Below are positions 20,581 through 41,960 of a stretch of 64,000 bases of DNA, in pieces; positions within the stretch are counted from its first letter, which is position 1; every line of letters begins with the position of its first letter. The position numbers and the translations under genes are program-made. Where the stretch lies: positions 60,202,001-60,266,000 of the forward strand of contig OZ320317.1 of the NCBI GenBank assembly GCA_976226885.1, in the 5' to 3' direction. Source of the DNA: Iphione sp. A-MEVVRFRX5. Lineage: Eukaryota. Under the pieces are notes generated by a model, which saw only the letters and a list, made by a program, of their open reading frames with translations, was not told the DNA's origin and ran no database searches.

Positions 20581-20637
20581 ACAAGTAGATGAAATGTTTC
20601 TTAACCCATAACGTGATCTGACTAATTTTTTGGTGAT

Positions 20638-20796: not shown

Positions 20797-20907
20797 AACA
20801 TGATTCAACAGTTATTCAATCCTTTCATTTAGCATTAGTATAGTACTGCTTTCACTTTGAGAGGGATCTTTCAAGACTTCATTTCAATCAATAGAACTTA
20901 AAAGAAG

Positions 20908-23900
20908 ATGGAAAGTAGTTTGAGTGGATGCGCATGGAGTGATATTGCTCTGGAGAATTATGTTGAATCCTGTTACGACGCTGACAGATTGCGCTCGTGG
21001 GCAAGATCTGAAGGATTATTGGATCACCCAATTGTTATATCTAGACTTCAGGAACTGGACAATAATGTGGTAAGTAATAGTCAATTAAGATTTTTAATAA
21101 TAATAATAATAATAATAATGATGTTCATAATAATTTCTTTTTTCAATTGTAGATCTCTCAACCTAGTGATCAATTTTGTTTCTCAATGGAGGAGTGGAAG
21201 GAATTACTGTCTAGCTTTGACGATATGGAGGAACTGAATGACTTTATAGTTAGCAACAATCTCCATATAGATGGAGAGGTCCAGAAACGGAGACAAGAAC
21301 TGAAGGAGGTAAGTATTGATTTAGATAAAGTTAAAAGTTCTTTCGCTCTATATATTTGCTTTAGTCTATTGTTGATTCATTTCTCTTCTTTTTTCTTTTT
21401 ATAGCAAAGCCAAGATCGCAACGGAGAGACAAGGCATGAGAGAAATAAGCCTGAAGAATTTACATGTAGAAGCTGTCACTCACATTTTAGTTCAAGACGT
21501 GAGCTTTATTTACATCAGGGACTTCAACATGGAGGAGGAGGGTCTAATGAATTTCAAGACGTTCCATGGCAAACCAAAGCTCCTTGGGTGAATGATAATG
21601 GTGATATTGATGATGACTTGAAGCGAACCTATGATGCTAATCGAAAACATATTTTAAGTTCTCATGAGCATGGTATTATAAATAGCGTGTATAATTTTCC
21701 TACCAATGATTTGGAGAACGGGGTGGGTGAATTAATGCAACATTTTGATGAAGTATACGTACAACAAACAGAAACATTTAAAATGGATATCGCCTTTGGA
21801 ATGATTTTACAGCATGCTGAAACGGAACAGTATCGTTATTTTATCCCATACCATAATATAACTTTATTTGGAGCTCCTGTTAGCTTATCTTCAATTAGAG
21901 ATTTGGATTTGATAAGACAGAGGATTAGAAATTTGGATTTGGAACTCTATTTTAAGCAACAGAGACCGGACACTAAGTGGAAGCTTGTTTTAGTAACCAA
22001 CATTGTCTATTATGTTACTAAAACAGGGCATTTGTTGGGGAAGGGTGTTCTACCAGACTATGTTAAACGTAAGCATTGTATTGAAGGGCTTGAACATCCT
22101 CCAAATAATAGGAAGCATTATTATAATGATTCTCTTTGCATATTTCTCTGCCTAGCTCTCCACAGAGGACAGAATCATAATATTGCAAGTTCTGTAAGGG
22201 TATATTATGATCAATGGCGAACATTTTTGGGTGGTTCTATTCCTCGCAATGCTAAACTTTATAAAGGTATCCAGTATGAAGAACTAACAGATTTTGAGCG
22301 CTGTTTCAATGTCTCTCTCTATATCTATGAATTACAACCCGATGATGTTGCTGTTTTACGCTATAAACCTTCAACCAGATTTAAATCTATTATGTACCTT
22401 AATCAGTATGCCTCTCATTTATCTTTTATAATAAACTTTAATGTATATGCTTCAAAATTTCAGTGTGAATCATGCAAGAAGCATTTCAGTCGTCATTTTA
22501 ATTTTAAACGTCATATAGTTTCCTGCGAACATAGGACCAAATATAATTTTCCAGGAGGCTTTTTCACACCTCCTCAAACAGTATTTGAAGAGTTGGAACA
22601 ATTTGGTATAAATGTTAGTGCTGAAGACAGGTTCTTTCCATGGTTCGCAGTTTTTGATTTTGAAGCGATTTTAGAAAGGATCGAGGAGCAAAGTTCCCAA
22701 AAATTATGTTGGAGTCAAAAACATCAGCCTGTATCAGTATCATTATGCAGCAATGTTGATGGTTTTGAAGCAGCTCATTGCATTATAAATTCAGATTTAG
22801 ATGAGATCTTGCAACAAATGTTCAATTATCTTGAAGATATACAAAGAACTGTTCACCATTTAGCCAAAATGAAATGGGGTAGATATTTAGACGAGCTGCT
22901 TTCAATGATGAAAGCTTGGGCTCCTGATCAAGGAGAGGAGGAGGAGGAGGAGGAGGAGGAGGAGACAGAAGAGGAGGAGGAGGAGGAGGAGGAGGAGGAG
23001 GAGGGCTTAACTCATGAGGGTAATTTGTTCATGTTCCGTCAACTAAAGATGTTGAAGCAAAAATTCATTAACTATATGGAACAGTTACCAGTAATTGGTT
23101 TTAACTCATCGAATTATGATATTAACTTGATTAAGTCTAAGTTATTTGGATATTTTGAGTTTGAGCAAGAAGGTAACCATGGATATGTAATAAAGAAAAA
23201 TAATTCATATTTAAACATATCTAATGATAAGTTCAGATTCCTTGATATATCTCAATTTTTAGCACCTGGCTGCTCGTATGCAAAATTTTTGAAGGCGTAC
23301 GAAGTAGAAGAGACCAAAGGCTTTTTTCCATATGAATACTTTGATTCATTTGATCGACTAGCTGAAACTTCTTTACCACCTCATGATGCTTTTTATTCAA
23401 ATTTAAAGGGTTGTAATATTTCTGTTGAAGAGTATTCATGCCTTCAAAAGGTTTGGCGAGAGGAGAATATGCAAACATTTAAAGATTTTCTAGTCTGGTA
23501 CAACAACAAAGATGTACTACCATTTATAACTGCTTTACACAAACTTCAAAATTTTTATTTTGAAAGAGAGTTGGATGTATTTAAAATAGCGATATCTGTT
23601 CCAGGAATAGCAAGGCGACTCTTATTTCAATGCTGTAAAGATTCAAAGGCATATTTCCAAATTTTTGGTTCTGAAGATGAAGATTTATACAGAACTTTTA
23701 AAAAGAATATTGTAGGGGGTCCTTCTGTCATTTTCAAGAGATATCACAAAAGAAATGAAACATTAATACGGGGAAGAAAAATATGCAAAAAGATTCTCGG
23801 ATTTGATGCAAATGCATTATATCTCTGGGCGATAGGTCAGGACATGCCTACAGGGATTTATGTCAGACGATTGGAAACAACAAGCTTTTGTCCAGAAAGA

Positions 23901-26517
23901 CAGACACGTTACATCAAAATGTTTCAGTGGTTGGACTGGAGAGCTAGCTATGATGGAGTGACTATTGCTCATAAACTCAATAGAGGATATGAGAAAAGGA
24001 TTGGGCCATATTGTGTGGATGGATTTTGTTCTGAAACAAATACTGTATATGAGGTGAATATGATACACAGGTCTTACATATATTATTTTTTCTGAATATT
24101 TTAGTTAGTAATGAAATGATTGTTAAAACTACATAAATTCATATATTTCTTTATTCAGTTTCAGGGTTGCTATTTTCATGGTTGTGAGAAATGTCAAAAA
24201 GACAGAATGACTGAAGTGGAACGTCTTAAACGCTTCGAACGCACTAAACAGAGGAGTGCTTATATCACTGCATTGGGTTATAACTTAGTTGAGATCTGGG
24301 AGTGTGATTTTGATCTGTTATGCCTTTCTGAACCTGCGCTGAGAGCTGTGGATGTCTTACCACCCTTTTCGAGGATTCACTCTGGAGAATTAACGAAGGA
24401 GGATATCATTCAGGCTGTAATCAGCAGAGAATTATTTGGTGTTGTGGAAGTAGATATTCAGGTTCCTGAGCAATGGCCAGTGGGATTTGAAAGAACCTGT
24501 GGTCCTAAAGAATATTTTGAGGAAATGTCTCCTCTGTTTTGTACATCAGAGATTCCCTTTGAGAAGATGGGAGAACATATGCAGACTCATGTGAGAGAAC
24601 ATGATCTATCCCAGGTATGAATATTACATAGTTATATAATTAATCTTGAAGAAATTATATGCTGGCTGAAAGCTTTCAATATGTGGTTCTTTTTTCAGAA
24701 ACCTAGGAAACTTTTGCTCAATGGAATGAAAGCTGAGAAAATTCTGTTAGCCACTCCTTTATTGCAATGGTATTTACAACACGGTATGGAGGTAACTCGC
24801 GTCTACCAGCTGATTGAATTTTCCAGGAAGAAATGTTTTGCTTCATTCAAGGATGAAGTTACAGATGCTAGAAGAATGGGGGATATAGATTCCTCCAAAG
24901 CCATTATAGCGGATACTATGAAGCTAATCGGTATGTGTGGGAAAGGTTTTAGAGTTCAGTTAGAGAGTTATATTTAATATAGATATAGAAGTTTAGAGAT
25001 ATTTGGTTTTGACAGTATTTCTTTTTTTATCAAATTACTGAAGAGCACTCATTCCTTATTTCAGGAAATAGCGCCTATGGTTCACTTATAATGGACAAAG
25101 AAAAACATCAGAATGTTAGCTATATTACTGGAAAGAGGAAGGCTTGTTTGGCTGCCAATGAGATATATTATCGTAAAATGAGTGAACTGGATGGTGATCT
25201 ATTTGAGGTGGAATCCGTCAAAAGGAAGATAATTTTAAATCTTCCTATTTACCTGGGCTACTTTATTCTTCAATATGCCAAGCTGCATATGTTGAGATGG
25301 TATTATGATTGTTTGGATGTTCTGGTGGATCGCTCAGACTTCGAATATATTGAAATGGATACAGGTATGTAGCATAGATCTAATAAAACCATAGCTGAGG
25401 AAGATATATTTTGTTGTATTTACATCTTTATTACTTTATTCTTTCAGATTCTGCATATTTTGCTATTTCCGGGGATAATTTTGAATCTGTGATAAAAGAA
25501 GACAAGAGGGAGCACTATTTCAGTGAGGTGAATGGTTCGTGCTCTTCATCATTATCATCTCTGCTAGAGGCTGGTAGATGGTTTCCACGTGATTGTTGCA
25601 ATGAACATCGTATCTATGATAAGAGAACTCCTGGACTCTTCAAATTAGAAGCCTCAGGTAGCGAAATGATTGCTTTGTGTAGTAAAACTTACATTCTTAA
25701 AACAAATGATGATTACAAACTGAGTTGTAAAGGTATTAACAAGAACAGCTTAGAAGATCCAATGGAAAAGTTCTGCTCTGTACTGAAAACAGGTCAGTCA
25801 GCATCTAGCCTTAATAGAGGGTTTCGTGCAAGAGGTAATACCATATTTACATATCAGCAGAGTAGAGCTGGATTATCTTACTTTTATTGTAAGAGGGAAG
25901 TGTTAGCTGATGGGATTTCCACAAAACCGTTAGATGTAGTATTAAGCCCTTGGCATATTCCACAGTATTTTATTTTCAAGGGAAAAGCAAATCCATTATC
26001 ACCTGATTTTCCATCGAGAATGTATATCTTCAATCAGGTCTTTGATAGTGCACGTGATGCTTACAATCATCAGCTGAAAATAATGAATCATGTAACAGGG
26101 GCTTTTATAAATGAAAAGAGACTGAAACTAACAGAAGTGTGGTTGGAAAAGCGTATTTCCTTAATGAGGGAAATTATTCTGGAAAAAATGAGGATCAGTG
26201 AAGAGGTTCGGCGATCATTAAGGAGAAGCGAGGACTTGGTTCTAGTATATTCTGTTTCAGATAACTATTGGGGAGCAGGCATGAATCAGCGGTTAGTTTC
26301 ACTATCGACCAGCTTTCGCGGGAGTAATATGTTGGGAAAATTGTGGGAAGAAGTACGAGAATTGCATGTAGAGGAAATACACAAGTCCTATCTGTTACGC
26401 TGTTACCACTGTAATTCTAAGAAACCTGATGTTAGGTTCCGAAGGGAATCTGAGAAAGATTTATGTGAGCAGTGCAATAAAAAAAATGAAATGTACCTCT
26501 TTTTGATTTTCTTCTAA
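20908..26517 (+). CDS. polB: Protein-primed family B DNA polymerase, 7 exons, ~1674 aa, with C-terminal NADAR-like domain and C4 zinc ribbon
   Basis: Exons 20908-21069, 21153-21308, 21405-24053, 24159-24614, 24699-24930, 25065-25364, 25448-26517 total 5025 nt; all junctions are GT-AG and in phase. Motifs: ExoI VFDFEA, ExoII GFNSSNYD, ExoIII YNNKDV, PolA FDANALY, PolB KLIG|NSAYG, PolC EMDT|DS. Two zinc fingers and a YE|FQGCYFHGC nuclease-like insert are also present. Confidence 0.93.
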
Positions 26518-26572
26518 TGTATAAATTGCTCAGCCGAAGGATTTCTTTTCAGTTTGAAATATATTTTGAAAG

Positions 26573-27197
26573 ATGTATGAACTTCCTGAGTATGTATTTC
26601 AATGTCCTACAACAATCACTATTAGTGGTTCAACAGGATCTGGTAAAACTTCATGGGTAAAAAAGCTATTATGTAATCCTAGTCTGTTTAGCTTACCACC
26701 CAGTAGAATAATATACTGCTATGGAACCTGGCAGGATGCTTTTGATGATATGAAGAATGTTGAATTTCGAGAGGGGTTGGATATTCCTATGGACACAAAT
26801 GGAGAACATATTGTTCTCATTTTGGATGATCTGATGAATGAAGTTATCAAGTCTCCATCAGCTGAATTGTTGTTTACTAGAGGATCTCATCATAAGAATA
26901 TAACTGTAATTTTTATCGTTCAAAACTTATTTCAGCAGGGAAAGTCTGCACGGAGTATAATGCTTAATACACATTACATGGTTCTCATGCAGAACCCACG
27001 TGATATTCAACAAATCAGAGTGCTTGCCAGACAGTTGGGGATGGAAAACTGTCTCGATCTTTCTTATAAGTTCTTATATGTTAGTGCCCTATGGTTATTT
27101 ATTGGTTGATCTTTCACCGCATAACATCAGAGATTTGAAACTCAAAACTGCAATATTTCCTGGAGAGACTACCATTGTCTATCTACCCAAGTACTGA
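26573..27197 (+). CDS. A32/FtsK-like packaging ATPase with an apparent +1 frameshift near 27086
   Basis: Walker A GSTGSGKT, Walker B LILDDL, GSHHKN, VQNLF..G..ARSI.LN. The conserved C-terminus PYGYLLVDL...IFPGE is in the next frame. Confidence 0.88.
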
Positions 27198-27199
27198 GA

Positions 27200-27622
27200 A
27201 TGAGATTTCCGAAATTCGTAGATGAAGATGTACGTCAGCAGACCTTTGCAGGCTGGAAGCATAGCTTGGACTCAAAGCAAATGGTTGATTGTGGATTCTT
27301 CTATTTAGGAGGACTTGATTCAGTGCAATGCTTTCACTGCGGTGTGCAACTACATTCATGGGATGAAAAAGACAATCCTCTCATAGAACATTTGAAATTT
27401 GCTCCTCACTGTGAATATATATGCAAGAAAGCTCATGTAATTTCATCACTATCAATGGAAATTATGCTAGAAGTCTTGCAACAATCTAAGAAATTACAAC
27501 TGAGAATAGCTGAATTAGAGCAAAAAGTTCATATGAACAATACAGCTGTAGATGAAGTGGATAATACTTTCAGTCTTTTTTCCAACAATAAGAGTAATGT
27601 AGCCAGAGCTGCTGTGCTTTGA
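27200..27622 (+). CDS. Single-BIR inhibitor-of-apoptosis-like protein with a C-terminal coiled coil
   Basis: R..TF..W, GFFY.G..DSVQCFHC...L.SW...DNP..EH.KF.P.C, giving the C-x2-C-x16-H-x6-C zinc ligands. No RING domain. Confidence 0.9.
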   Translation: MRFPKFVDEDVRQQTFAGWKHSLDSKQMVDCGFFYLGGLDSVQCFHCGVQLHSWDEKDNPLIEHLKFAPHCEYICKKAHVISSLSMEIMLEVLQQSKKLQLRIAELEQKVHMNNTAVDEVDNTFSLFSNNKSNVARAAVL

Positions 27623-27721
27623 GGTTAGTTCAACATTATCCTAAGTTGGTTATGAATACCTCAGCAGTCGAAATAGCTGAGCATTTACACTTTAGATACC
27701 GATAGAGATGGAGCTAAGTTT

Positions 27722-28048
27722 GTGGAAAAAATGTCACAGAAACTTAGATCTTCAGCAGACTTTTTCCGGTTATTAATGAATACTGAAAAGGAACAAGCAC
27801 TACAGCTATTGAATTCTATTACTGCTCTACAGACGCTTGCTCTGAGTGAAATAGCTTTGAACCTTACTATTTTACCTCTTTCTCAGAAAACCAAGAAACT
27901 TTTAACTCGATACAAGAGGTTGGTTTCTCTTCTGAGTAAGAAGACTAAATCCATCACAGCTAAAAGAAGTGCTATAAAGAAAAACCGTCGTACTATTCTC
28001 AATATTTTACAAAGTATTAAGCCTGAATTATTGGAATTGGTAAAATGA
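27722..28048 (+). CDS. Basic helical protein resembling a small gene commonly found in Maverick core blocks
   Basis: 108 aa, Lys/Leu-rich (LSEIALN, KKLL..YK.LV.LL.KK). Its stop overlaps the next start (ATGA). Confidence 0.7.
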   Translation: MEKMSQKLRSSADFFRLLMNTEKEQALQLLNSITALQTLALSEIALNLTILPLSQKTKKLLTRYKRLVSLLSKKTKSITAKRSAIKKNRRTILNILQSIKPELLELVK

Positions 28049-28512
28049 AAAAGATGGTACTAATTCCATTTGATCAGTTCTCTCGAAATAAGTTAAATTC
28101 ATCTCAAGAACCAACTGTTTCAATTAACAAGCTCGACACTGATCTAGTGTTACTTCCTTTTGGAAAACAACAAAGGAAAGCAGCTGAGGCTCTTTTAGGA
28201 TATGTGGAAAGGAACATGGACTGGAATAGGAATGGTGAAATCATCATTGATGGTGTGGTTGTTACTGGTAGCCATATCACAGATCTGTTGAAGGATGCCC
28301 TATTCAACTATAGGAACTTTGAACCTGTGGGCTATAAGGAATTTTATCAACATCTTCGTGAAATCCCACTTACATTGATCAGGAATCCCAAACGTCGAGT
28401 TCTGATAGGACGTGGACAATTACCACCGCCTGGAATACCAGTTGAGCAAACTCCTATTGACATCACAAAAGACAACAAAAAAGACTGGAAAACTAACTGG
28501 AAAACATTATGA
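28045..28512 (+). CDS. Maverick hypothetical protein upstream of the integrase
   Basis: 155 aa with W...GE..IDG..V.GSHI.DL and P.G..EF...L..IP..LI.N, recalled as typical of the Maverick gene preceding the integrase. Confidence 0.75.
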   Translation: MKKMVLIPFDQFSRNKLNSSQEPTVSINKLDTDLVLLPFGKQQRKAAEALLGYVERNMDWNRNGEIIIDGVVVTGSHITDLLKDALFNYRNFEPVGYKEFYQHLREIPLTLIRNPKRRVLIGRGQLPPPGIPVEQTPIDITKDNKKDWKTNWKTL

Positions 28513-29606
28513 GTAAAGAGTTAAGTAATATATATTTTGATCCCTCACGATCATCTTCATTCGGTGGGATTAATAAACTATATCAGGAGGCCAAGACTCT
28601 GGGATATAAGAAGAAGGATGTAGAGAACTGGCTTCAACAACAAGATGTCTACACCTTACATAGACGACTTAATCGGAACGTTAAAAGACCGAGGGTAGTA
28701 GTATCCTCAAAAGATCAACAGTGGGATGCGGATACTATGAACATGGTCTCTTTTGCTGAAGAAAATGATGGTTATAGTTATGTTCTAGTATTAATTGATA
28801 TATTTACTCGCTTTGTTTGGACTGTTCCTCTAAAAAAGCTGACAGGTAAAGAAATGGTCGATGCTTTAAAGCAGGTTTTTCCTCAGCACAAACCTAAAAA
28901 ATTAAGAACGGATTCAGGCTCCGAATTTGTTAATAAGGTTGTGAAAAAATATTTGCAGGAAGAAAATGTGTATCATTTTACTACAACTAATCTTGTGAAA
29001 GCTAATTACGCTGAAAGGGTAATTAAGTCTTTGAAAACAAAATTGGTTCGATATATGCATCAGACTCAATCCCATCATTGGCTTGATGTTTTAGCTAAAA
29101 TAACTGATGCATATAACATCACAAAACATAGCTCAATTAAAATGACACCTACACAGGCTAGATCTGTGAATCCTATTATCCTCTGGAAAAATCAATTTAA
29201 AGAGAAAAACCCTAGGATAAGGAAATCTAAACCTAAATCAAAACCAAAACCTGTGTATAAATTTAATATTGATGACCGTGTTCGTCTTGCACGCTATAGA
29301 ACCCCCTTTGAACGAGCTTATGATGAGAAATGGACACATGAAATATTTACTGTTACTAATAGAGCATTACAGCAAGGGATTTCACAATATACTATAAAAT
29401 CCTGGGATAATGAACCTGTGATAGGAAAGTTTTATGAAGAAGAGCTAGAGAAGGTTATTGTTAATGAGGATACTGAGTTTAAAATAGAACGTATTGTAAA
29501 GAAAAAGAAGATGAATGGACAAAATGGTTACGTTGTAAAGTGGTATGGTTGGCCGGAGAAGTATAATTCCTGGGTTCCTATTAGTGATGTCAAAAAGCTT
29601 AAATAG
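28509..29606 (+). CDS. int: Retroviral-like DDE integrase with C-terminal chromodomain
   Basis: QQWDAD (D), LRTDSGSEF (D), NYAERVIK (E). The C-terminal FKIERIVKKKK...YVVKWYGWPEKYNSWVP is a chromodomain. Confidence 0.95.
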   Translation: MSKELSNIYFDPSRSSSFGGINKLYQEAKTLGYKKKDVENWLQQQDVYTLHRRLNRNVKRPRVVVSSKDQQWDADTMNMVSFAEENDGYSYVLVLIDIFTRFVWTVPLKKLTGKEMVDALKQVFPQHKPKKLRTDSGSEFVNKVVKKYLQEENVYHFTTTNLVKANYAERVIKSLKTKLVRYMHQTQSHHWLDVLAKITDAYNITKHSSIKMTPTQARSVNPIILWKNQFKEKNPRIRKSKPKSKPKPVYKFNIDDRVRLARYRTPFERAYDEKWTHEIFTVTNRALQQGISQYTIKSWDNEPVIGKFYEEELEKVIVNEDTEFKIERIVKKKKMNGQNGYVVKWYGWPEKYNSWVPISDVKKLK

Positions 29607-29666
29607 TTCAACTCTTCTCATGTTCATCATTCTGTGTTTTGATTTCAAGCTGTAACAACAAGTAGG

Positions 29667-30050
29667 ATGTATCTCTTTATTAAGCAGAATGATTCTGAGC
29701 TGTTCTATCCTAAAAACACCAGTAGTGATTTCATAGTTGAACTACCACATTCATTAAAATTAAAAGGGGATTGGAGCTGTGCTCTTGTAGAATGTAATAT
29801 AGATAATCCTTCTTCTAAGGAATTATATATTTATTCCGATTTAATAGCATCAAGTGTTGTAAAAGGGAAAACAGCTCCCATTCTCAGAGTAACCAGTGAG
29901 AATGGTGAATTTGTGAATCCATATTACATACCAGTGATTAAGGATTATGTCTTTAGGTTCCGTGTTTGGATTAGAACAGTGGATGGAAAGCTATTTGAAC
30001 AAGATCTTGAAAATTGTCGCCTTGTCTTACATCTTAAAAAGGAGAGCTAA
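29667..30050 (+). CDS. Minor capsid protein (penton, single jelly roll), very compact
   Basis: 127 aa with F.VELP..L.L.G.W.CALVE, LYIYSD.I...V.G...PILR and NPYYIPV. Confidence 0.8.
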   Translation: MYLFIKQNDSELFYPKNTSSDFIVELPHSLKLKGDWSCALVECNIDNPSSKELYIYSDLIASSVVKGKTAPILRVTSENGEFVNPYYIPVIKDYVFRFRVWIRTVDGKLFEQDLENCRLVLHLKKES

Positions 30051-30099
30051 CTCCACTTAGAGTCATTTCAAATCAGACAAGCTAAGAGTCACAAGCAGC

Positions 30100-30471
30100 A
30101 TGAGCTTCATTCCCTATGTTCCAGACTTAGAAGCTTGGAAACAAGTTCCTAACCAAAAGGATAGTAAACCTTTCTATGTTCTTCAGAAGGGAAAGGGAAG
30201 TGATATTAAATTGGTTAGTCCTCAAGAGGGAGTCATTGAGAGAGCAAAGTATAAACTAAGTCGTCAGATAAAAACAACACAACCAAGAACACGTACTCAG
30301 TCGAGATCTAGGAAACGAAGGAGAGGGAACAAGAAGAAATCTATATCTGTATCTCATAAGAAGGTAAAGAGAAAGACAAAGACAAAGACAAAGACAAAGA
30401 AAACCAGTCTGAAAAGAAAACCAACCAAAACATCTAAAAGGAAATCTGGTAGTAAGAGAAGAGGACGATGA
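30100..30471 (+). CDS. Highly basic putative DNA-condensing core protein
   Basis: The C-terminal half is very K/R/S/T-rich, including a KTKTKTK repeat. An LQKGKG motif resembles an adenain cleavage site. The gene sits directly before the major capsid gene. Confidence 0.75.
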   Translation: MSFIPYVPDLEAWKQVPNQKDSKPFYVLQKGKGSDIKLVSPQEGVIERAKYKLSRQIKTTQPRTRTQSRSRKRRRGNKKKSISVSHKKVKRKTKTKTKTKKTSLKRKPTKTSKRKSGSKRRGR

Positions 30472-31799
30472 GTTATATACTGAGTAATGCACAAGAGGGT
30501 TTTGATGATCGCTTAGCCCTCTTCAATATTCCACCTGTAGAAACCGCAGTTCAAGAAATATATTATAAGGATTATCGTCCCATTGGTCAGATTGCTTCTG
30601 ATTCTACTTTGGAATTTGATGTGAGCAATAATTCACCTGATTATATTGTTTTGAATGAAATTTCATTGATAACAACGATTCAATTACACACTGACCAAGA
30701 TAAGCCAATCACCACAGCTCATGATGTGACTCTCATTAATTTTGCCGCTGCTACAATGTTCAGACAACAAGATTTTTATATTCAACAACAGCTAGTTACT
30801 AGCACTATAGGTGCTAACTTTCCTTATAAGGTAATGATAGATGGTTTGCTTGGACAAGGTTTAAATGATCAACTTAGTTGGATGTCTGTAGCCGGCTATA
30901 TGAAAGACACCGCCCTGCTTATGGACGATCATGAAGGAAAATCTAGTGGAAATACAGGTTTAACAGACAGATTTGATAAGACTAAAGCAGGAAAAAAGCC
31001 TGTATTCAAAACAAGACTCTTTATGGATATCTGTCAGCAGAAAAAAATGTTGTTAAACGGCTTACCTTTAAGTATTAAACTATATCCGAGCACAGAGAAA
31101 TTTAGACTGCTCTACAAAACTCAACCAACTACTGCACCTGCTACTACACCAAAGTCCTATAAAGTAAAATTACTAGATGCAAAATTACTTGTTCCTTTTG
31201 CCCGAATTCATCCTGGAATGATCATGGCACAGGGTGACATGTTGAAAAAGGAAATGGCATTGTATCCTTTTACTAGAAGCGAGATAAAGTCCTATAATAT
31301 TCCTAAAGGTAGTTTAAACTGGAGTATGGATAATCTTTTTCAAGATATAATTCCCAAGCGTTTGGTTATGGGTTTCGTTTTAGCAAGTGCTTATACTGGT
31401 GAAAACGAAAAAAATCCTTTTAATTTTCAACACTTTGATGTATACTATCTCGACTTCCAAGTTAATGGGCAGAGTAGTGGAGGTCAAATCCTACAACCAG
31501 ACTACAAAAATCATAATTATGTTTCTGCTTTTGTCAGACTATTTGAGAGTATGCCTCCTGATCAGACAGAACCACCAAATATTACCTATTTAGATTTTAG
31601 AGGGGGATATTGTTTATATGTCTTTGATTTAGAAAAGGGAAAGGATTCTACATATTCAATCCCATTACGAAAGGGTCAAACAAGGCTCTCTGTGAAATTT
31701 GCTAAAGCTCTACCCGAACCCGTTTCAATAATTGTGTATGGAAGTTTTGAGGCTCTTATGAAAGTAGATCAAGCAAGAAATGTTATAATCGAGACCTGA
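30468..31799 (+). CDS. Major capsid protein (double jelly roll)
   Basis: 443 aa with L.LF..PPV...V.E, YIVLN...L, P.R...GFV...AY.G....NPFNFQHF, F..GYCLY.FDL and L.VD..RNV. Confidence 0.92.
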   Translation: MSYILSNAQEGFDDRLALFNIPPVETAVQEIYYKDYRPIGQIASDSTLEFDVSNNSPDYIVLNEISLITTIQLHTDQDKPITTAHDVTLINFAAATMFRQQDFYIQQQLVTSTIGANFPYKVMIDGLLGQGLNDQLSWMSVAGYMKDTALLMDDHEGKSSGNTGLTDRFDKTKAGKKPVFKTRLFMDICQQKKMLLNGLPLSIKLYPSTEKFRLLYKTQPTTAPATTPKSYKVKLLDAKLLVPFARIHPGMIMAQGDMLKKEMALYPFTRSEIKSYNIPKGSLNWSMDNLFQDIIPKRLVMGFVLASAYTGENEKNPFNFQHFDVYYLDFQVNGQSSGGQILQPDYKNHNYVSAFVRLFESMPPDQTEPPNITYLDFRGGYCLYVFDLEKGKDSTYSIPLRKGQTRLSVKFAKALPEPVSIIVYGSFEALMKVDQARNVIIET

Positions 31800-32260
31800 T
31801 GCTCATAAAAATGGTTGTACAGGTACAAAACTCACATTCAGCAATGAACAGTGAACAGATAACTAAATATCTTCTATCAGATACCCATACTTCTAAATAT
31901 TTTAAGGGTGTATTAGCCTATGATGAGATGCCTGAAGAAATTACCTATCCATGTTTGTTCGTTGTTAACACAGATCCATCATTCCGACCAGGAAATCATT
32001 GGGTCTGTGTCTTCTGCGCGGATGTTAATGAATACTTTGATTCTTTAGGGTTTCCACCACTAGAGTTAGAACATTTCCTTTCAAAACAAAGAAAAAATTA
32101 TAAATATAATACTAAAATATTACAGGGTAGCAAAAGTGATGTCTGTGGAGATTATTGTGTTCTCTTTGCTTATTTTCGCTGTAGAGGTTATAGCATGGAA
32201 TATTTTTTATCCCTATTTAGCTCGGATTTAGATTACAATGATAAAATAGTTGAATTATGA
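31799..32260 (+). CDS. Adenain-like cysteine maturation protease
   Basis: VVNTDP...PGNHW (His), EYFDSLG (Asp), LQ.....VCG.YC (Gln, Cys). The real start may be MNSEQI at 31844. Confidence 0.92.
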   Translation: MLIKMVVQVQNSHSAMNSEQITKYLLSDTHTSKYFKGVLAYDEMPEEITYPCLFVVNTDPSFRPGNHWVCVFCADVNEYFDSLGFPPLELEHFLSKQRKNYKYNTKILQGSKSDVCGDYCVLFAYFRCRGYSMEYFLSLFSSDLDYNDKIVEL

Positions 32261-32478
32261 TAAACTTAGAATGAATAGTATCATTATACAACATGTATTC
32301 ATTAGAAATAAAAAAGAAATGTATCCAGCAAAATACTTGTTTATTATATATTCTGTTGAAATCTCTTGAATTCTCACAACCTTTATATGAGGCAAAAAAA
32401 AGTAAAAGAAGCTTTTTGAATGAAATACGCAGGTGATATATATATATATACCTGTGCTCAAAGCAACTGAACGATAAA

Positions 32479-33600
32479 TAATCTTGACTCAGCAAGAGGT
32501 AAATATACTATGGTTATCTTAAACACTCTTTGACTTCAACATAGCTTCATCATGGATCTCGCCTTATTTTTTGTTACGTCTGTGTCATACATTTTAAAAT
32601 GGAATCAAACCAACTACACGAGAGATAATCTTAACTCAGCAAAATGCAAACATACTATGGTTAATATTAAACAGTCTTTGACTTCAACATAGCTTCATCA
32701 TATAACTCACAAAAGAAAACTATATGAGTTTATTCCCCACTTACACATCTCTTTTCAAGAGATAAATATTTATGTAATGAACCTGGCTAACTAGCTGGTT
32801 TTTAACAAGAGAACACATTGTATGAGCCCCATACTTCAAGCTCTACTACTCCTTGGAGGATAATCTACAAGTAAATATTAAAAAAGGGAACACACACTTA
32901 GCAATATATCCACGCTTAACTAGCGAGCCCTGAACCCAACTAACTAGCTAGGTTCTAACAAGAGAACATACGATATGACTGTCACGCTTTAAGCTTGTCT
33001 ACTCCTTTGAGTAGTACAGTAAATTCTTTTTTAAAAGTCTAGGACAGTAATAATAATAGCTGTGCCCAGCTAGCTAGTAGATTATAAAAGGTCTACACGA
33101 GTTCCTTGAGTAAATATCTTGAAAAAGAGAAGACACTCGACATTATCATCACGCTTAACTAGTGAGCCCAGAACCCATCTAACTAGATGGATTCTAACAA
33201 GAGAACATACTGTATGACTGTCACGCTTTAAGGTCTACTCCTTTGAGGAGTACCTCTTTTGATATAAAATATATGTGTGAGCACCACGCTTTAAGGTTTA
33301 CTCAGCTGAGACCCAGCTAGCCAGCTAGCAAACTAATTGCTAGATCTATGTATGTATGTATGACTAACATGCTTCAAGGTCTGTTTAGTTGTCCTTGAGC
33401 AATATTTTCTATATAAGAATGAGCACCACGGTTTAAGGTCGACTCCTTTGAGCAATATCTCTTTTGATATAAAATATATGTGTGAGCACCACGCTTTAAG
33501 TTTTACTCAGCTGAGCCCAGCCAGCCAGCCAGCCAGCTAGCTAGTTAGCTAAAACCTTATAAAAAGTCTACAGCAGTTCTTTAAGTAAATATCTTGAACA
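32479..33600. repeat. Non-coding mosaic of nested imperfect direct repeats inside the Maverick
   Basis: Paired blocks: ~32479-32551 with ~32626-32701, ~32911-32992 with ~33149-33232, and ~33255-33310 with ~33458-33513. CACGCTT(T)AAG and (A)GCTAGCT motifs recur. Confidence 0.85.
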
Positions 33601-33648
33601 TGAGAAGATGGATTCTCCTATGCAAACCTGTAAAGGTTTCGAGCTAAA

Positions 33649-33885
33649 TTAAATGTCCTGAGGAGCTCGATTCCGTAAATTATACCTGTGAGTTCTATTA
33701 CGTAAATTATATCCATTTTTGTGAGGAGTATTATCTGCTCCTGATAGGCGTCGTTGCCGTCGTCTTCTAAGTCCTCTCATATGTTCGTTGTCCGCATCAT
33801 TTACAGCAGCTATTACACGGTGATTTTCTACGTCTTGATATCTCATTCGCGCCGCCATCTCCTCCCTCATTCTGACTGAAAACAT
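33649..33885 (-). CDS. Small basic peptide with tandem YNLR.R chromatin-binding-like motifs
   Basis: 78-aa ORF ending RRRRQRR...NGYNLRNRTHRYNLRNRAPQ. A TTTTCAG acceptor at its 5' end suggests an upstream exon, or a start at Met 33870. Confidence 0.65.
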   Translation of the reverse strand: MFSVRMREEMAARMRYQDVENHRVIAAVNDADNEHMRGLRRRRQRRLSGADNTPHKNGYNLRNRTHRYNLRNRAPQDI

Positions 33886-34523
33886 ATATTCAAAGATAAT
33901 AAATTATATGAATCAAGTCAAATTGTTAACAAGCACCAAAAGAATTGAGTACAGGAGATAATATTTATTGTGAGCCAAAAGAATTGGTTACAGGATATAA
34001 TATTTATTGCTAAATCAAATATATTTCATCTTAGGAATTTTTTATTTAAATAAGTTAAACTGATAACAGCTATTGATAAATTTTGGACTAATTTATAGAA
34101 GTTAGATACATAATAAGAAACTGAGAGTTCAAGAAATTCAGATATAAAAAAGATTTAAGTGTATGAAAATTAAGATGGGAAAAAAAAAGAAAATTCGTGC
34201 CTTACACCTATGTCTCGCATTTATGTCAGGAAGCAGATCGATCTCGTCATCTACTCCGTTGTAAACACTACATGAAATATAATTAATCTCTTGTGAATTT
34301 TGTGTGAATTCACACTACATAGAGATCATAGACGGAAGCAAATCGTTTACTCCAAATAAAGTTACTTTAAACAAAGAAACAATACTGATAAGTTATGTAA
34401 CCTTTAAAATGGAAGCAAATCAACTACTTCAGACAGAAGTTATATTAAATGACCCTAGTACACTTTTTTGCTAAGTTAAGTAGATATTTACGTTTATTAT
34501 TAATATTTGGTATTCATCAATCT

Positions 34524-35330
34524 TTATGAAGATACATACTGATTCTGATATGCATGTCCATGTTCGGGCGCTCCATCAAGAGGTAGCTCCATCGCGCCCA
34601 ATCCTTCAATCTGCCCATTCAACGCACCCAGCATCATCGCCTCCTGGATATTTCTTCTATTTTTTTTACAATAGCGATGGACATAAACTAGAGCTGCAAT
34701 AATCATGATGAAAATCACAGCCAGTCCAACATATAACAAAATCCATACTTTGTTTTCAATTGGACCCATTCCATTATCCGCATGCTCTGATGTCGTAGTT
34801 CTTGACTTAGCTGGACTCAATCGAGGGTTAATATCATCTGTATCAAGCTCATCAGTATTACGATGAATACTTTCCACCAAACTGCCCTCGCCGTCTGGAG
34901 CTGGGCCAACAGTGTCATAATATTCAGTGTCATGATCATCATCATCAGTAAAGTCATTCGGAACAAGCTCCCTCTCACTAGAGGAGGAAGAGGACTCGCA
35001 ATCTGATTTGATTGCAAGTTGCTCGTGGCTTTGAATTCTGCTGCAGGGAATATCCGTATTTCGTACATCAATGAGCAGAGTTTGAGGAAATAATTTGTAA
35101 ACCAGTGTCAAGTTCAATGTGTCCAGTTTCGAATAGCGGAAATCCAAATACCTGAATCCGTAAAACTCCTTTCCCGCTACAAGCAGCGAGCGAATCAAGC
35201 TAGTTATAGGAATACTCCGGCAAAGTAGTCGTGAACCCTTGCATCTGCATCTTTCACACAAGTCATTAGACTGAACAGATGAAATTAAAATAACACAAAC
35301 TAAAGAAGAGAAAACGAAAAATTTTGCCAT
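34524..35330 (-). CDS. Type I membrane protein 1: signal peptide, short LRR module, acidic Ser/Thr stalk, TM, Tyr-containing tail
   Basis: LRRNT-like CERCRC.GSRLLC, LRR-like LDFRYSKLDTL and LIDVRNT.IPC, TM VWILLYVGLAVIFIMIIAALVYV followed by a basic stop-transfer segment. Confidence 0.85.
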   Translation of the reverse strand: MAKFFVFSSLVCVILISSVQSNDLCERCRCKGSRLLCRSIPITSLIRSLLVAGKEFYGFRYLDFRYSKLDTLNLTLVYKLFPQTLLIDVRNTDIPCSRIQSHEQLAIKSDCESSSSSSERELVPNDFTDDDDHDTEYYDTVGPAPDGEGSLVESIHRNTDELDTDDINPRLSPAKSRTTTSEHADNGMGPIENKVWILLYVGLAVIFIMIIAALVYVHRYCKKNRRNIQEAMMLGALNGQIEGLGAMELPLDGAPEHGHAYQNQYVSS

Positions 35331-35747
35331 AATGGCTGCGTTGCAAAGTCACTGTAAAGGGATCAGGTTAGTTTCCCATTTTTTTCGCTAGCGAGCTAGC
35401 GAGCGAATATACTGTTTCAGTGGTGATGATCAGTTCTATATTATACATAAATAATGATATGATATGATATGATAAGATAAGTGAGGGGTTAAATAGTAAA
35501 ACAGTGATTTGTTTTCGTATTTGTTATTGATTCAATTCACTAGATGGCGCCCTAGTTCATAAAAAACTGATTTAGTTTTGTATCTCAGTAGATGGCATGC
35601 TAGTACATAAAACGCTGCCCTGAGCTATGTTTTAAAGGACTAGCACTGGCTTATTTAACTTTTTTGAGGACAGAGTCCCTTCCTGTATACGTCTCGTTGT
35701 AAACACTAGTCTCTATAATGACTAGAAAAAAAAAATCATAAGAGAAA

Positions 35748-36404
35748 ATGGTCACTTCTCCCGAAAGAATCAAAACTCCTAATATAATATCATATTATTG
35801 GTTGAGGGAATTTGAAGACGAATCTAAACACGGTGTTCGCTTTCTACATGAATCAGTAGGAGAGAGAAATGAATTTCCACCTAATTCCATAATATTACAA
35901 TATTATCGTTGGTGTTTAAGAGACTATGAAATGAATATTATATATGTTAGTGAGGATGTTTTCCTTTTAAGAGAGTTGTGTGATATCATTGGAAAAAGAG
36001 CTTATAATTCAGCTATGTTCAGGGGCTTCATCTGTGAAAGTGATAAGATATACTTTATTCAACAGAAACCACATATTTATGGAATTATTACTGAAATAGC
36101 TAATCGACCAGATAGGGTGGATGTTATGAAGAAGGTATACACTTATTTGTTGCATCTTGAATTCAGCAAATTAATTAGCTTAGACTTCATCATAGAAAAT
36201 CTATTTGAGGAATATGCAATATACTGTCATCTTCAAATAAACTACAAACGACTGGCGAATGCTAGTTCCTATATGGCTAATTTCTTCCAAGTTGAAAGCT
36301 ATTTCAGTTTTAAAGAAACTACAGATTTCCTCAATAATCAAAATCCTGCGTCCACACTGCGTGACGTAGCATCACAAAAAATTTATGAATTTACATTCAT
36401 CTAA
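35748..36404 (+). CDS. Unknown family, paralogue P1 (218 aa)
   Basis: Shares YYRWCLRD...IYVS.D.FLLR.LC...G.RAYN, MK.VY.Y.L, RLA....Y and Q.P...IYEF with P2 and P3. Confidence 0.85.
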   Translation: MVTSPERIKTPNIISYYWLREFEDESKHGVRFLHESVGERNEFPPNSIILQYYRWCLRDYEMNIIYVSEDVFLLRELCDIIGKRAYNSAMFRGFICESDKIYFIQQKPHIYGIITEIANRPDRVDVMKKVYTYLLHLEFSKLISLDFIIENLFEEYAIYCHLQINYKRLANASSYMANFFQVESYFSFKETTDFLNNQNPASTLRDVASQKIYEFTFI

Positions 36405-36728
36405 ATACAACTCTTTGAGTATGTTATCTTAGGAATGTATTTATGCAATATCATGCAGGCAATGACCTAGCAACGAATAGATTCGTGAGGATGAACACGA
36501 TGAATTACTTGAACCACTAGAACAGTACGATTAACCTGATTTTATAAATTCCATATTGCGCAAATGTTGACGTATCTGAATATATTAGCCTTGTAAATAT
36601 CTAGAACCAATGGTTGAAGCGAACTCATCCTTTTAAATAACTGCTATGGACGTTTTCTCTCTCAGAGGCGCAGCTGACTTCTGAGAGCATTTTCCCGATA
36701 CCTATTTTTTCCCCAAATTTTAAACGAG

Positions 36729-37791
36729 ATGGAGAGGTTAAGTTCAAAAGTACAGGTTAAGGAAGAGGACGGATTCTTGAAAATTGTACGCCGAAAATAT
36801 GATAAAGTCCGCAATGTTGCGGTTCCCATGGAGGTTATTTCATGGGCATTAGAAAACCAGAAATTTATCCTGGAAGCAAAGCTGTCGTACGCAGGAGACA
36901 AGATGATGGAAACAATAGTTCCAGATTGGAAGGTGATGGTCTCGTTCTTCCTAAACGAATTTTACATTGGTTTCAACAAATATATCAATGGAGAAAGAAG
37001 CGGGTAAGTTAATTATATTTATATATTAATATTATTATTTATCTATACATCAACTTTAAATCTAATTAAATGCCTCACGTTAACCACAATATCTTCATCA
37101 TCATTAAATCTTATATCATCATTTCCTCCATTTCAGAATGGATTCCATAAATCTTCATGTTGATGAATTCAAAAAATTGGTTGAAATTAATGAAATAGAG
37201 AAGGGAATGCCCCCACAGAAGAAAATGCGACGAACATATCAACGTTGGCAGTATGAAGTTGTCGACTACAAGGGCGTCAGTTTGATCAAATCTAATTCAT
37301 GGTTCCTATCGCAAAAAAGAGCAAGAGAAGAGGCTATGGTTGTAAAGGCTAGCTTTGAAGAAAAAAGTGATATCAAAGATGATACCACACTTAAGGCAGA
37401 CATAGAAATGTTTTGTCAAGAACTACTTTTACCCTCTGCTAGTCAGATCGCTGAGAAAGTTTATAGCTATATTTTGAGGAAGGAATTTGAAAGCAGAGTC
37501 AATCAGCTATATAGCGGTTCTAACTATACTGTTCTACAAATAGATGAAAGTAGCTCAGGTGAATTAGTCAAGTATCCGGAACATCTATTCAGAGAACATG
37601 CAAAGCCCTGTCATTTGAGAATTTCACTACCAAGATTAATGGAAGGTTGTAATATAATTACTCGTTATTACGGATTTGATACACTTGTTACACATATGGA
37701 AGCATTGCAGGTGCTCAAAAGAGCACAACCTTTTGAAGTGTTGAAAGCAAATAAGCCTGATTTTGAAAATGAATATGCACAGCTTGATTAA
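36729..37791 (+). CDS. Spliced PC4-like ssDNA-binding domain fused to divergent paralogue P4 (~309 aa)
   Basis: Exons 36729-37003 and 37137-37791; the intron 37004-37136 is GTAAGT...TTTCAG, phase 2, and joins in frame. The join creates VMVSFFLNEFYIGFNKYINGERSG|MDSINLHVDEFKKL, which is PC4-like. The C-terminal part has KVYSYIL..EF and RLMEGC..I..YYG. Confidence 0.72.
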
Positions 37792-38118
37792 CTTTGAGTA
37801 TGATGATGTAATACTTTTTATTATCTATAAAACTTATTACAATGCAACATTAACTAGCTTATAGTTTTGGAATCTAATTCATATCAATTAGCCACTACTA
37901 CAATATATACTTATAATAATGATAGATTTAATTGTAGCATATTATACACTGCTTCAAAGCTCGGTAAAATTGTAGCTGTTCTTTGTTCACTTATTCATAT
38001 AGTTATACTTCTGTTTCAAGCGTATAACATAGACTTATAATGATAAACTTGACTTGTAGTATATACTGATTTAAAGCTCAATAAAAAAAAATTGTTCTTT
38101 CTTCACTTATTCTTGTGG

Positions 38119-39051
38119 TTATACTTCTGTTTCAAGCATATTTGTTTCAATCATATTATATATGTCATTATAAAATCCATAATAATCAACTACTGCAACT
38201 CTCTTCTTACGAAATTTTCTCACAAGAATAACCGCTATTAAAACTATTATTATTATAAACAATAATGGACATAACACCCAAAGAACAATATTCACAATCG
38301 GAATCCTATTGGTTCCATCTGTACTTCTTCCAGTTGAGTTCATAAAAGTTGTACCGACGCCCTCTTCAGTGATAGTAGTCGCAGTTGAGTTGAAATACGG
38401 TTTACTACCACCCTCCTCAGTGATAGTAAAAGTTGTGAACGACCCAGTTGACCTTGTTGTAGTTGTGTCACGCTCAGTCAGATAACTGAACGTTGAAGAA
38501 GCGCTCGAAGATACAATAGTAGCAGTAGTAGTGGGTTTAATAGAAGATGAGTTAGTACGTAATGTAATATTAGCAAAAGAAGAAGTGATGAATGCTGTGG
38601 TTGTGGACTTCGTAGTAGATCTGCTTTCTGAAGTAGTAGTAGTAGAAAGTAAATCTGTACTAGGTTGACTATATCCATATGGAGAAGAAGAAGAAGAAGA
38701 AGAGGAGAAATATGTTGAGGCCGTAGATGCTGACTCACGCTCACAGTTCCATAGCAAAGTAAAGTTCACTGTTAATGGAATAGATTCGCAGGCAAAGTTA
38801 CTCCACTGATTCCGTATATCGAGTAGTTGCAATACCTGGAACTTTTCAATTATATCCATTCGTAGTTGTGACATTTTACACCAGCGCCAATCGAGATGAG
38901 TGTACTGGCGGTTAATTGGGATGAAAAGTGACTGCGGATCCACTCTTCTGCATGTAATAGTGTCCCATACACACGAACAGATTTGGCAAATACTGTTTTG
39001 TGCATATCCATGTGATATGAGTATAAGCAGGAGAATAATGCATTTTTCCAT
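38119..39051 (-). CDS. Type I membrane protein 2: signal peptide, short LRR module, mucin-like Ser/Thr stalk, TM, tail ending ETEV
   Basis: CQICSC.WDTITC, LDWRWC.MSQL, LLDIRNQ..NFAC, ~140-aa S/T-rich stalk, TM IVLWVLCPLLFIIIIVLIAVILV followed by RKFRKKR. Confidence 0.87.
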   Translation of the reverse strand: MEKCIILLLILISHGYAQNSICQICSCVWDTITCRRVDPQSLFIPINRQYTHLDWRWCKMSQLRMDIIEKFQVLQLLDIRNQWSNFACESIPLTVNFTLLWNCERESASTASTYFSSSSSSSSPYGYSQPSTDLLSTTTTSESRSTTKSTTTAFITSSFANITLRTNSSSIKPTTTATIVSSSASSTFSYLTERDTTTTRSTGSFTTFTITEEGGSKPYFNSTATTITEEGVGTTFMNSTGRSTDGTNRIPIVNIVLWVLCPLLFIIIIVLIAVILVRKFRKKRVAVVDYYGFYNDIYNMIETNMLETEV

Positions 39052-39323
39052 ATCTAAGTAAAATATTCAGAACAGGAGACACGAAGTGTGCACGACGAGT
39101 CCCGGCAGACAAATAAGAAGGGTCACAAGTCAGGTTCGCGATCAGTCAGCTCACTTAATGAGAGTCATAAATCATTGAGAAAAGGGGGTCAGTAAATAAA
39201 GGGTTAGAAGTCGGGTTTAGACTTGATGCTCTAAGAAACGCGCGGAACAGCGAACAAGATAGGGATAGACCTAAAATATGGATAAATAACTAACACAAAA
39301 TCTTTAATAGAAACTCTTTATTT

Positions 39324-40106
39324 TCACATAGTAATTAGTTCATATATTGTTGTACTACTTTCATTTAGACCTGCAGAATATATAGGATCCTGTGCTTTAA
39401 GAAATTCCTCAACTTCTGTAAAAGTGAAAGTTTCACTCAATCCATAAAGCATAGAGATATATGCACAACCACTAGCCAATCGATTAACAGTTATGCGAGT
39501 ATGAGAAGACATAAGACAAATTTTATAATTCTTACTATTTATAACCATTCTAGTTCTTGTTCTCTGATACTCATCATCCAACATATAATAATAAACCATT
39601 TTCATAATACTCTCCTTAGTTACTGTTGGAGGATATTCAGTGATGACTCCAAAGTCTTCAATCTTGTCAGCTGTAAGTCGTGAACTAGGCTTTGATTGCT
39701 CATATACCCTCCCCAAAACCTTAACACAATTATATGCTCTTCTACCCATAATGGTACATAAATCTTTCAAGAGAAATATGTCATTACTAATGTAAACAAC
39801 ATTATGATTCCGATCCCGCAGATACCAGCGATAGTGAGCTGGAGGTGAAACTTTTGGGTATACATTTTGCACTCCACCAAAACCAGCTCTTAAATTCATA
39901 TGATGTTTATCTTCTTCAATTTCCTTTATATAACACTTAGTGAAATAGTCTATTTCATCAGTACTATCATGAGATCCATCCAGGTCACCGTCAGCTTGAT
40001 GATCCGCAGGCAAACTTGATTCATAGGCAATATGATCGAGCTCCATGTTATGTTCAAAACCTGGCGATGTTGACTGTACCCACTCCACTCGTAAACTAAG
40101 CTTCAT
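39324..40106 (-). CDS. Unknown family, paralogue P2 (260 aa)
   Basis: HYRWYLRD...VYISNDIFLLKDLC.IMGRRAYN, IMKMVYYYML, RLASGCAY, QDP...IYEL. Confidence 0.85.
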   Translation of the reverse strand: MKLSLRVEWVQSTSPGFEHNMELDHIAYESSLPADHQADGDLDGSHDSTDEIDYFTKCYIKEIEEDKHHMNLRAGFGGVQNVYPKVSPPAHYRWYLRDRNHNVVYISNDIFLLKDLCTIMGRRAYNCVKVLGRVYEQSKPSSRLTADKIEDFGVITEYPPTVTKESIMKMVYYYMLDDEYQRTRTRMVINSKNYKICLMSSHTRITVNRLASGCAYISMLYGLSETFTFTEVEEFLKAQDPIYSAGLNESSTTIYELITM

Positions 40107-40141
40107 ATAGTCAGACAGAGTTATATATTCCTGAAAGATAT

Positions 40142-40792
40142 TTATAACATTCTAAATTCATAAATGTTACTTAATACCTCTACTGAATGCGTCACAATTG
40201 GATTTTGAGCAGTTAGAAACGCACACACCTTCTCACAATCATAGTATGAATCTAAACAATATAATGTTGCCACATATGCACATGCATTTGCTAAGCGTCT
40301 AGGAGTTATTTTAGAATGAATCTTCGATAACAAAAAATCAATATTTTGCAGATCTACAAGCACTCTCTCTTTAAGTCTTTCAAAATCATTATTCAAAATG
40401 TAAATGTAAACCTCTTTCATAATTTGTTCTTTAGTCGGTATTTCTTTGAAAGACGTTATTATATCATAAAAATGTGGAACTCCTTCTAATACCTCCTGCT
40501 TAAATCTATCATGAACCCAGCCATTAAAACAGGCGGTATTAAATGCTCTCCGCCCCATAGCATTACATAGATCCCGCATCAGAAATATTTCATCACTAAC
40601 ATATATAGTTTTCAAGTTAACATCTTTTAGACACCAATGATAATATTTCACCATCTCATCTTCATTTGAATATTCATCTATCACCCCCGAGCTGCCATCA
40701 TCATCATTCCCCATATCATACCTATCCTCCTCCACTTCCCTATAATAATATTCCATATAATAATTGAATTCATTTTCTTCTTCTTCCTCCAT
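40142..40792 (-). CDS. Unknown family, paralogue P3 (first ATG at 40792; the ORF track starts at TTG 40828)
   Basis: YYHWCLKD...IYVSDEIFLMRDLC.AMGRRAFN, IMKEVYIYIL, RLANACAY, QNP...IYEF; acidic N-terminus. Confidence 0.85.
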   Translation of the reverse strand: MEEEEENEFNYYMEYYYREVEEDRYDMGNDDDGSSGVIDEYSNEDEMVKYYHWCLKDVNLKTIYVSDEIFLMRDLCNAMGRRAFNTACFNGWVHDRFKQEVLEGVPHFYDIITSFKEIPTKEQIMKEVYIYILNNDFERLKERVLVDLQNIDFLLSKIHSKITPRRLANACAYVATLYCLDSYYDCEKVCAFLTAQNPIVTHSVEVLSNIYEFRML

Positions 40793-40826
40793 CACACTTT
40801 TATATTTACCAAATGATACATTATAC

Positions 40827-41120
40827 AAAAAGTCGGCCCCCGTGGTTCAATGTCCTTTCTATACTAGCTTCCACCTGTTCTCCTCCCATCTTCAACATTG
40901 AAGTCAACGTCATAACTCCATGTTGGATATCCTAGCTGTCCAACATGAACGACAATCGTCTCAGCCTGCTCTGTCAGGATGCACAACCAGACGGCTGAGC
41001 CAGGATAAACACCGCTACCTATTTTCTTCACGTTGGCCGGTGAGGGAGTCGAACCCTGCTCATCACTGTCTCGTATCTGTTGGACGGAGCGCCCTGCGCT
41101 CCGAACCACGGGGACCGGCT
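40827..41120 (-). ncRNA. Candidate RNA polymerase III transcript (~290 nt), VA-RNA/EBER-like
   Basis: A-box-like GTGGTTCGGAGCG at about +12 and a B box GGTTCGACTCC at 41055-41045. The 5' end (41119-41103) pairs with the 3' end (40848-40832) over 17 bp, with one mismatch and one G-U, immediately before TTTTT. Confidence 0.65.
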
Positions 41121-41560
41121 GAAAGTGCAGTAACAAATCACTTGGTGGTTGCTATGCAGAGACACTAACCCCATCTGGTGTTTCTCCCTGGTAGTTAGAG
41201 GGATTTCTACCCTTCGTAAACAATAGATGGCGGTAAAAACGATACAGGTAAGAAAATTATACATACTTGCAAAGATATGGAAAATTAATCAATTTCTTTC
41301 ATCTTCAAGATATTAATCTATTCTCATGGGAAAAACTACAGTAGAATTAATACATACCACAATCAAACGGCGATTTCACAGCCCCATTCACTTGAATTGA
41401 GCCTTGTATTCAGGAAACACCATTTCAAGCTATGTCCAGGGTTTATGAGATTTCATCTTCATCACCGATAAAAAATAACTCTTGCCTAAAACATGGCAAA
41501 CAGAGTATACAATAACCGCATCAGGCTGAAAGAGCTCAGCTTGGTCGGATCCTAGCCGTC

Positions 41561-41764
41561 ACTGTCTCGTATCTGTTGTACGAGACAGTTGGATCCAGAT
41601 CTCTTTACAGAGGTCACCTACTTAACCAAAATTAACTTCTTTCACTCTGTTCTTCACGTAGGCTAGTCTAAAGTCATGTCTGCCTTCCCTCCCTTACGTC
41701 TCATTTATAAATCATTCCACCTCTTTCCTTCCCTTAATTCCATACTTGGACTCGTCCAAGTATG
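41561..41764. repeat. Right subterminal hairpins
   Basis: 41561-41589 is ACTGTCTCGTA-7-TACGAGACAGT (11-bp stem). 41741-41764 is CATACTTGGAC-2-GTCCAAGTATG (11-bp stem). Confidence 0.85.
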
Positions 41765-41866
41765 TCACTTTCACGCAACGTATGAGCTACGTACATTCGG
41801 TTCAAGCTATGGCTCGCGTTCACAACCAGGGGTGGGCTCACTCTCTCAGAGTCAATATATGCAAAG

Positions 41867-41960
41867 ACAGATCCCACTGGGAGGGGCTTAGGGTGGGGGG
41901 GAAAATGTTTGATCTTATTAGCATAGTCAACACACTATTCTCTGCTTACTATTTACTACT
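41867..41960 (-). repeat. Right terminal inverted repeat (94 bp)
   Basis: Reverse complement of the left TIR. It ends ...TATTTACTACT, followed by the TSD GTGGTG. Confidence 0.95.

Follow-up and report, generated by a model that had tools for sequence, protein, structure and literature searches.

P-domain genes and a predicted PC4/Pur-like parent gene in a Maverick/Polinton element of Iphione

P-domain genes and their parent

We examined a 64,000-nucleotide stretch of the Iphione sp. A-MEVVRFRX5 genome (GCA_976226885.1, contig OZ320317.1, positions 60,202,001 to 60,266,000 of the forward strand; hereafter the window), in which four related open reading frames (ORFs), P1 to P4, occupy the right part of a Maverick/Polinton element in this 1.18-Gb animal genome (Table 1). 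An initial annotation, made from the sequence alone, had described them as a four-member family of ~220-amino-acid (aa) proteins with no known domain; its coordinates and open frames were right, with the P4 ATG at 37138. P1, P2 and P3 encode stand-alone proteins and P4 is probably the second exon of a spliced, 309-aa parent gene, and the annotated size does not hold for P4.

Table 1 Features of the element and its right part (window positions).
Feature	Position	Strand	Description
Maverick/Polinton element	19588..41960	.	Holds all four P ORFs; 94-bp perfect terminal inverted repeats (TIRs), AGT/ACT trinucleotide ends, direct repeat
L1	34524..35330	-	Probable type I membrane protein: signal peptide, Cys-rich head, acidic stalk, transmembrane helix
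P1	35748..36404	+	Stand-alone P-domain protein of 218 aa; parent gene follows directly downstream
Parent gene, exon 1	36729..37003	+	1.5 PC4/Pur-like repeats in the model: three strands, two helices, three strands
Parent gene, intron	37004..37136	+	133 nt, phase 2, GT-AG, 22% GC; inferred from conservation
Parent gene, exon 2 (P4)	37137..37791	+	Probable last helix of the PC4-like unit, basic patch resembling a nuclear localization signal, P domain with degenerate zinc insert
L2	38119..39051	-	Probable type I membrane protein with Ser/Thr-rich stalk
P2	39324..40106	-	Stand-alone P-domain protein, 260 aa from first ATG
P3	40142..40792	-	Stand-alone P-domain protein, 216 aa, isoelectric point 4.6

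P1, P2 and P3 are clear homologues, 29–36% identical over aligned columns, with local alignment z scores of 39–58 against 300 shuffles, none of which scored as high. P4 is related to them more weakly (19–21% identity, z 5–11, again 0/300 shuffles). A hidden Markov model (HMM) of P1–P3 found it at E = 6.6e-8, with the next best of 680 window ORFs at E = 1.1, and profile–profile comparison, whose significance the annotation had set as a test, gave 98.3% (E = 1.3e-14), or 99.6% (E = 2.5e-24) with a deeper alignment; judged from these comparisons, the homology of P4 to P1–P3 is weak but true. The motifs said to be shared are present with small departures: YHW stands in P3, and the first and last motifs are spaced more widely than written. 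The acidic N termini noted for P2 and P3 are borne out, strongly for P3 (net charge −17 over the first 50 aa) and moderately for P2 (−9; P1, −2); orthologues suggest that P2 starts ~20 codons downstream of its first ATG.

The predicted model of P3 is confident (predicted local distance difference test (pLDDT) 86.6, predicted template modelling score (pTM) 0.81), with a poorly defined acidic N-terminal helix, a strand-rich module (residues 44–114) and a helical module (118–212). The fold libraries searched with it yielded no clear match, and no family in Pfam, PHROG or the PDB sequence families fits. On the evidence of the model, the P domain, a strand–strand–helix–strand module plus a helical module, is a new, well-folded domain of ~170 aa. 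When P3 was queried across the host genome, all 150 scored candidates (150 of 274) matched, at identities from 100% down to 34%, and the family is therefore common to many Maverick lineages. A search of 1.84 billion representatives returned seven matching proteins, all unnamed and from ENA assemblies.

Upstream of P4 lies a 92-codon ORF (exon 1) with a GT donor at its end; an AG acceptor precedes P4, and the two frames join in phase. Donor and acceptor positions are the same in all 16 loci that have both parts, several of these being near-identical pairs, and the P4 ATG is kept in 4 of the 16; one further locus is without the P4 start. Among ten remote loci found with query P0005, nine have the same phase-2 intron and the tenth a shifted exon-1 frame. 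It is from this conservation that we infer splicing. The parent is a conserved, single-copy accessory gene in this Maverick group.

Exon 1 is modelled with a PC4/Pur-like fold, in which two strand sheets are linked by helices, and is structurally most similar to Pur-alpha and other PC4-like proteins; a Pfam scan for PF02229 (PC4) placed 0 of 22 exon-1 rows over the cut-off. The absence of a known domain stands for P1–P3 and not for the parent gene, of which P4 is a part and whose first exon is the one modelled with that fold. In remote lineages the helical module of the P domain holds a putative zinc site, with a C-x-G-C..H..G-C motif that 13 of the 29 rows in alignment A7 carry and that the window P4 and all 28 P-type rows lack. 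P1–P3 are without the putative nucleic-acid-binding head, the basic patch and the zinc insert.

Age and selection of the P genes

P1–P3 are old duplicates of the back part of the parent gene, held as distinct subfamilies by purifying selection. In a tree of 57 rows, all P-type rows fall in one clade (support 96/98), within which each of P1, P2 and P3 clusters with orthologues of other lineages (2, 8 and 5 rows, respectively, all at 100/100) and not with the other two; because the tree is midpoint-rooted, the direction of duplication is taken from architecture. Selection was measured at the level of genes and windows. The ratio of nonsynonymous to synonymous substitution rates (dN/dS) was below 1 in 24 of 24 pairs, at 0.18–0.65 for P pairs (13/13 below 1; P1 against its orthologue, 0.18), 0.07–0.23 for parent pairs (n = 8, two near saturation) and 0.21–0.38 for membrane-gene pairs (n = 3). 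In sliding windows over 12 sister pairs, the corresponding ratio of proportions (pN/pS) was below 1 in 21 of 22, the exception being the ragged N-terminal edge. The annotation had called the family old and selected, and the tree subfamilies and dN/dS agree. Stand-alone P genes were absent from all six zinc-retaining elements examined over 30 kb, which have the parent only, and from within 10 kb of two zinc-less loci not picked by P matches.

The host element and its neighbourhood

The TIRs (19588–19681 and 41867–41960) are flanked by the direct repeat GTGGTG (19579–19584 and 41961–41966), and the left end has one extra AGT. The element thereby combines TIRs, (AGT)2//(ACT)2 ends and a 6-bp target site duplication, the end motif being that of Maverick/Polinton elements in the available text of PMC8097293. 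Pfam identified an integrase (rve, E = 3e-12, with Chromo) and an A32-type packaging ATPase (Pox_A32, E = 2e-5, over the cut-off), together with a weak adenain match (Peptidase_C5, E = 0.034), and no Pfam family matched the 786-aa and 443-aa ORFs. Because Pfam gave none, the labels PolB and capsid are presumptive, based on position, size and motifs. Ten other copies are 98.4–99.7% identical to the window across the P region, and the element family is therefore young. The gene order of the window recurs in 12 of 13 close copies, the thirteenth being interrupted by an insertion; among damaged close copies (L079, L084, L087 and L090) we saw an insertion in P1, an L1 frameshift, a 3.5-kb insertion between P2 and P3 and a large insertion after L2.

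L1 and L2, homologous to each other (z 13), had been annotated as leucine-rich repeat (LRR) genes. That name is doubtful: one LRR-like motif lies in the Cys-rich head of L1 and none was found by regular expression in L2, and no Pfam LRR family matched among the 10 proteins scanned, both included. The proposal of an LRR-and-P module duplicated with inversion is not supported. In 13 of 16 other exon-1 loci the P gene(s) come first, followed by exon 1, P4 and an adjacent pair of L2 and L1 (the remaining three having the window's order without L2, neither L gene, or a decayed locus), and with the L genes adjacent and the P genes upstream, L and P are therefore not a duplicated module. One inversion of the P1–exon 1–P4–L2 block would convert the common order into that of the window.

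Other features of the element were also recorded. The PolB-like gene (21735–26517, +) has at least four apparent GT-AG introns (~24055–24158, 24616–24699, 24932–25065 and 25366–25448), whereas vertebrate Mavericks are described, in the available text of PMC8097293, with a core of eight genes, all intronless, and with accessory regions that vary; in its last exon (25666–26517, +) a NADAR domain (Pfam E = 8.3e-12, over the cut-off) lies C-terminally, followed by a Cys cluster. An inhibitor-of-apoptosis (IAP)-like gene with a single BIR (27200–27622, +; E = 1e-18) lies within the core block, and one or two BIR genes lie upstream of the parent gene in other lineages. A 78-aa Arg-rich ORF (33649–33885, −), 38% conserved in locus L011, is possibly a DNA-packing peptide. 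Non-coding, nested imperfect direct repeats of 59–124 nt separate the protease and accessory genes (32450–33610), and a perfect 78-bp tandem duplication (20638–20793) precedes the first element ORF. Outside the element are 126-bp and 84-bp satellite arrays (52600–54700 and 55400–57300) with inverted copies nearby, and long single-exon host ORFs for a sulfatase (14449–16251, −; E = 3.7e-45) and a polycystin channel region (8133–9335, +; E = 9.3e-24).

Proposed function and comparison with known systems

The parent protein is probably nuclear, with a putative intramolecular PC4/Pur-like pseudo-dimer in its model, and would bind single-stranded DNA in strand-displacement replication or act as a PC4-like transcription coactivator, an activity suggested by its fold family. 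That the parent serves the element as a nuclear coactivator or binder of single-stranded DNA seems fairly probable. P1–P3 would make protein contacts through the P domain, with the parent or its partners, and would thereby tune, titrate or retarget it; the cis-tandem module of another Maverick group (below), the tendency of DUF1508 proteins to dimerize and the acidic character of P1–P3 point to such a role. The reading as a whole, of a nucleic-acid-binding parent and three proteins acting by contact through a shared domain, is tentative, its chance falling a little short of even. A bolder and unlikely version is that these Mavericks encode their own PC4/Pur-fold single-stranded-DNA-binding protein, a functional counterpart of the adenovirus DNA-binding protein of a kind not known from Polintons, and that the head-less paralogues supply in trans the second P module present in cis in other Mavericks, as a dominant-negative or switch timing replication of the integrated element; were it true, bivalve two-domain 'PC4 expansions' would be largely Maverick genes.

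P1–P3, freed from the parent, might instead each bind a different conserved host protein (a chromatin, transcription or cell-death factor), having subfunctionalized under purifying selection. The three subfamilies are indeed divergent while each is conserved, their acidic N-terminal tails are variable, P2- and P3-type genes shift position to adjoin the PolB or capsid block in some loci, and the family sits among other host-facing genes (BIR and two membrane proteins). Yet each of 16 loci (a biased sample, picked by P matches) has one P gene immediately before the parent and in its orientation, and no LxCxE motif is conserved (5 of 28 rows); we judge host partners unlikely, though with an appreciable chance. 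That P1–P3 themselves bind nucleic acid as regulators, through the three-strand/helix module and the helix-turn-helix-like helical end, seems decidedly doubtful.

An arms race, in which an accordion-like gene expansion answers a diversifying host target, was the reading of the initial annotation. P copy number does vary (1–3 per 10-kb stretch, 0 in the zinc-retaining elements), P pairs evolve faster than the parent, and pN/pS is 1.87 in the extreme N-terminal window and 0.80 in the C-terminal one. However, near-identical tandem paralogues are absent, the subfamilies are old with orthologues in other lineages, every P pair and all but one window fall below 1, and gene set and order persist in nearly all close copies, which makes this expansion improbable. 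Chance open frames or neutral remnants would fit database relatives that are all unnamed, but purifying selection in every pair, the confident P3 model and the existence of relatives in other assemblies leave that explanation hardly credible.

Accessory Maverick genes are mostly unannotated, and one widespread gene here gains a testable job, that of binding nucleic acid with a PC4/Pur-like fold, a type of help that protein-primed replicons need. Selection can preserve three old, shortened paralogues of a single gene within a 22-kb element; an ORF-only reading misses spliced genes in such elements; and host 'PC4 expansions' may include element genes.

Like type I PC4-like domains (Pur-alpha repeats I–II, Whirly/P24, MRP1/2), whose topology is reviewed in PMC7549692 (available text), and like PC4/Sub1, modelled exon 1 has sheets linked by helices. 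It differs in having three strands per repeat, not four, and no PF02229 match; the parent head is fused to a P domain, which those proteins do not have, and P1–P3 are without the head. A second multi-copy Maverick group (L032–L054, for example G000:C15:83.53 Mb; P0013) has, beside the ATPase, an intronless gene for a ~460-aa protein that combines tandem PC4-like domains with two Cys/His helical repeats. Most of the 34 PF02229 matches in the host genome come from this group; Pfam recognizes the N-terminal PC4 domain of L032 and P0013 (30.3 and 34.5 bits, cut-off 25). The tandem-PC4 proteins compared here (L032–L050 and P0013) are also Maverick-borne, adjoin ATPase, integrase and capsid genes and share with the P/parent family a homologous helical Cys/His module (E = 1.5e-11), but they are intronless, with two helical modules per chain and no recognizable hairpin module. 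Profile alignment finds no match between exon 1 and their PC4 part, and P1–P3 likewise show no direct alignment to them (E = 0.66).

The resemblance of the P hairpin–helix part to DUF1508/UPF0339 (YegP-like, PDB 6q2z) is a lead only: ~42 residues match by HMM at E = 0.0014 (other alignments, 0.033 and 0.042), a Pfam scan of 30 family-related proteins gave no PF07411 match, and DUF1508 was not among the top 50 rows of a whole-protein fold search. DUF1508 proteins are bacterial or archaeal 60-aa units, reported as dimers or tandem pseudo-dimers (10.1101/2024.11.21.623966, available text), in contrast to one module in a 200-aa P protein.

Accessory regions of diverse ORFs flank the Maverick/Polinton core (PMC8097293), and adintovirus accessory genes include unnamed 'Adintoc' families as well as homologues of IAPs (PMC8502044, section 3.2); the available portions of both texts make no mention of PC4 or of an intron-bearing accessory gene with truncated paralogues, and our literature searches found no paper on PC4-like Maverick genes. 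The P family is a genuine domain family that had lacked annotation, and its description is a useful addition for an element of a known kind, the comparison with Adintoc families being by text only. In scallop, 3 of 5 PC4 genes carry two PC4 domains, and bivalve PC4 numbers are called a gene expansion (PMC9223095), in the available text of which 'transpos' does not occur. That the bivalve two-PC4 genes are of element origin is a guess.

Poxvirus-type gene accordions are recent tandem amplifications, multi-copy and variable in copy number. The P genes are likewise a multi-copy accessory family of variable copy number, but their copies are old, divergent and under purifying selection.
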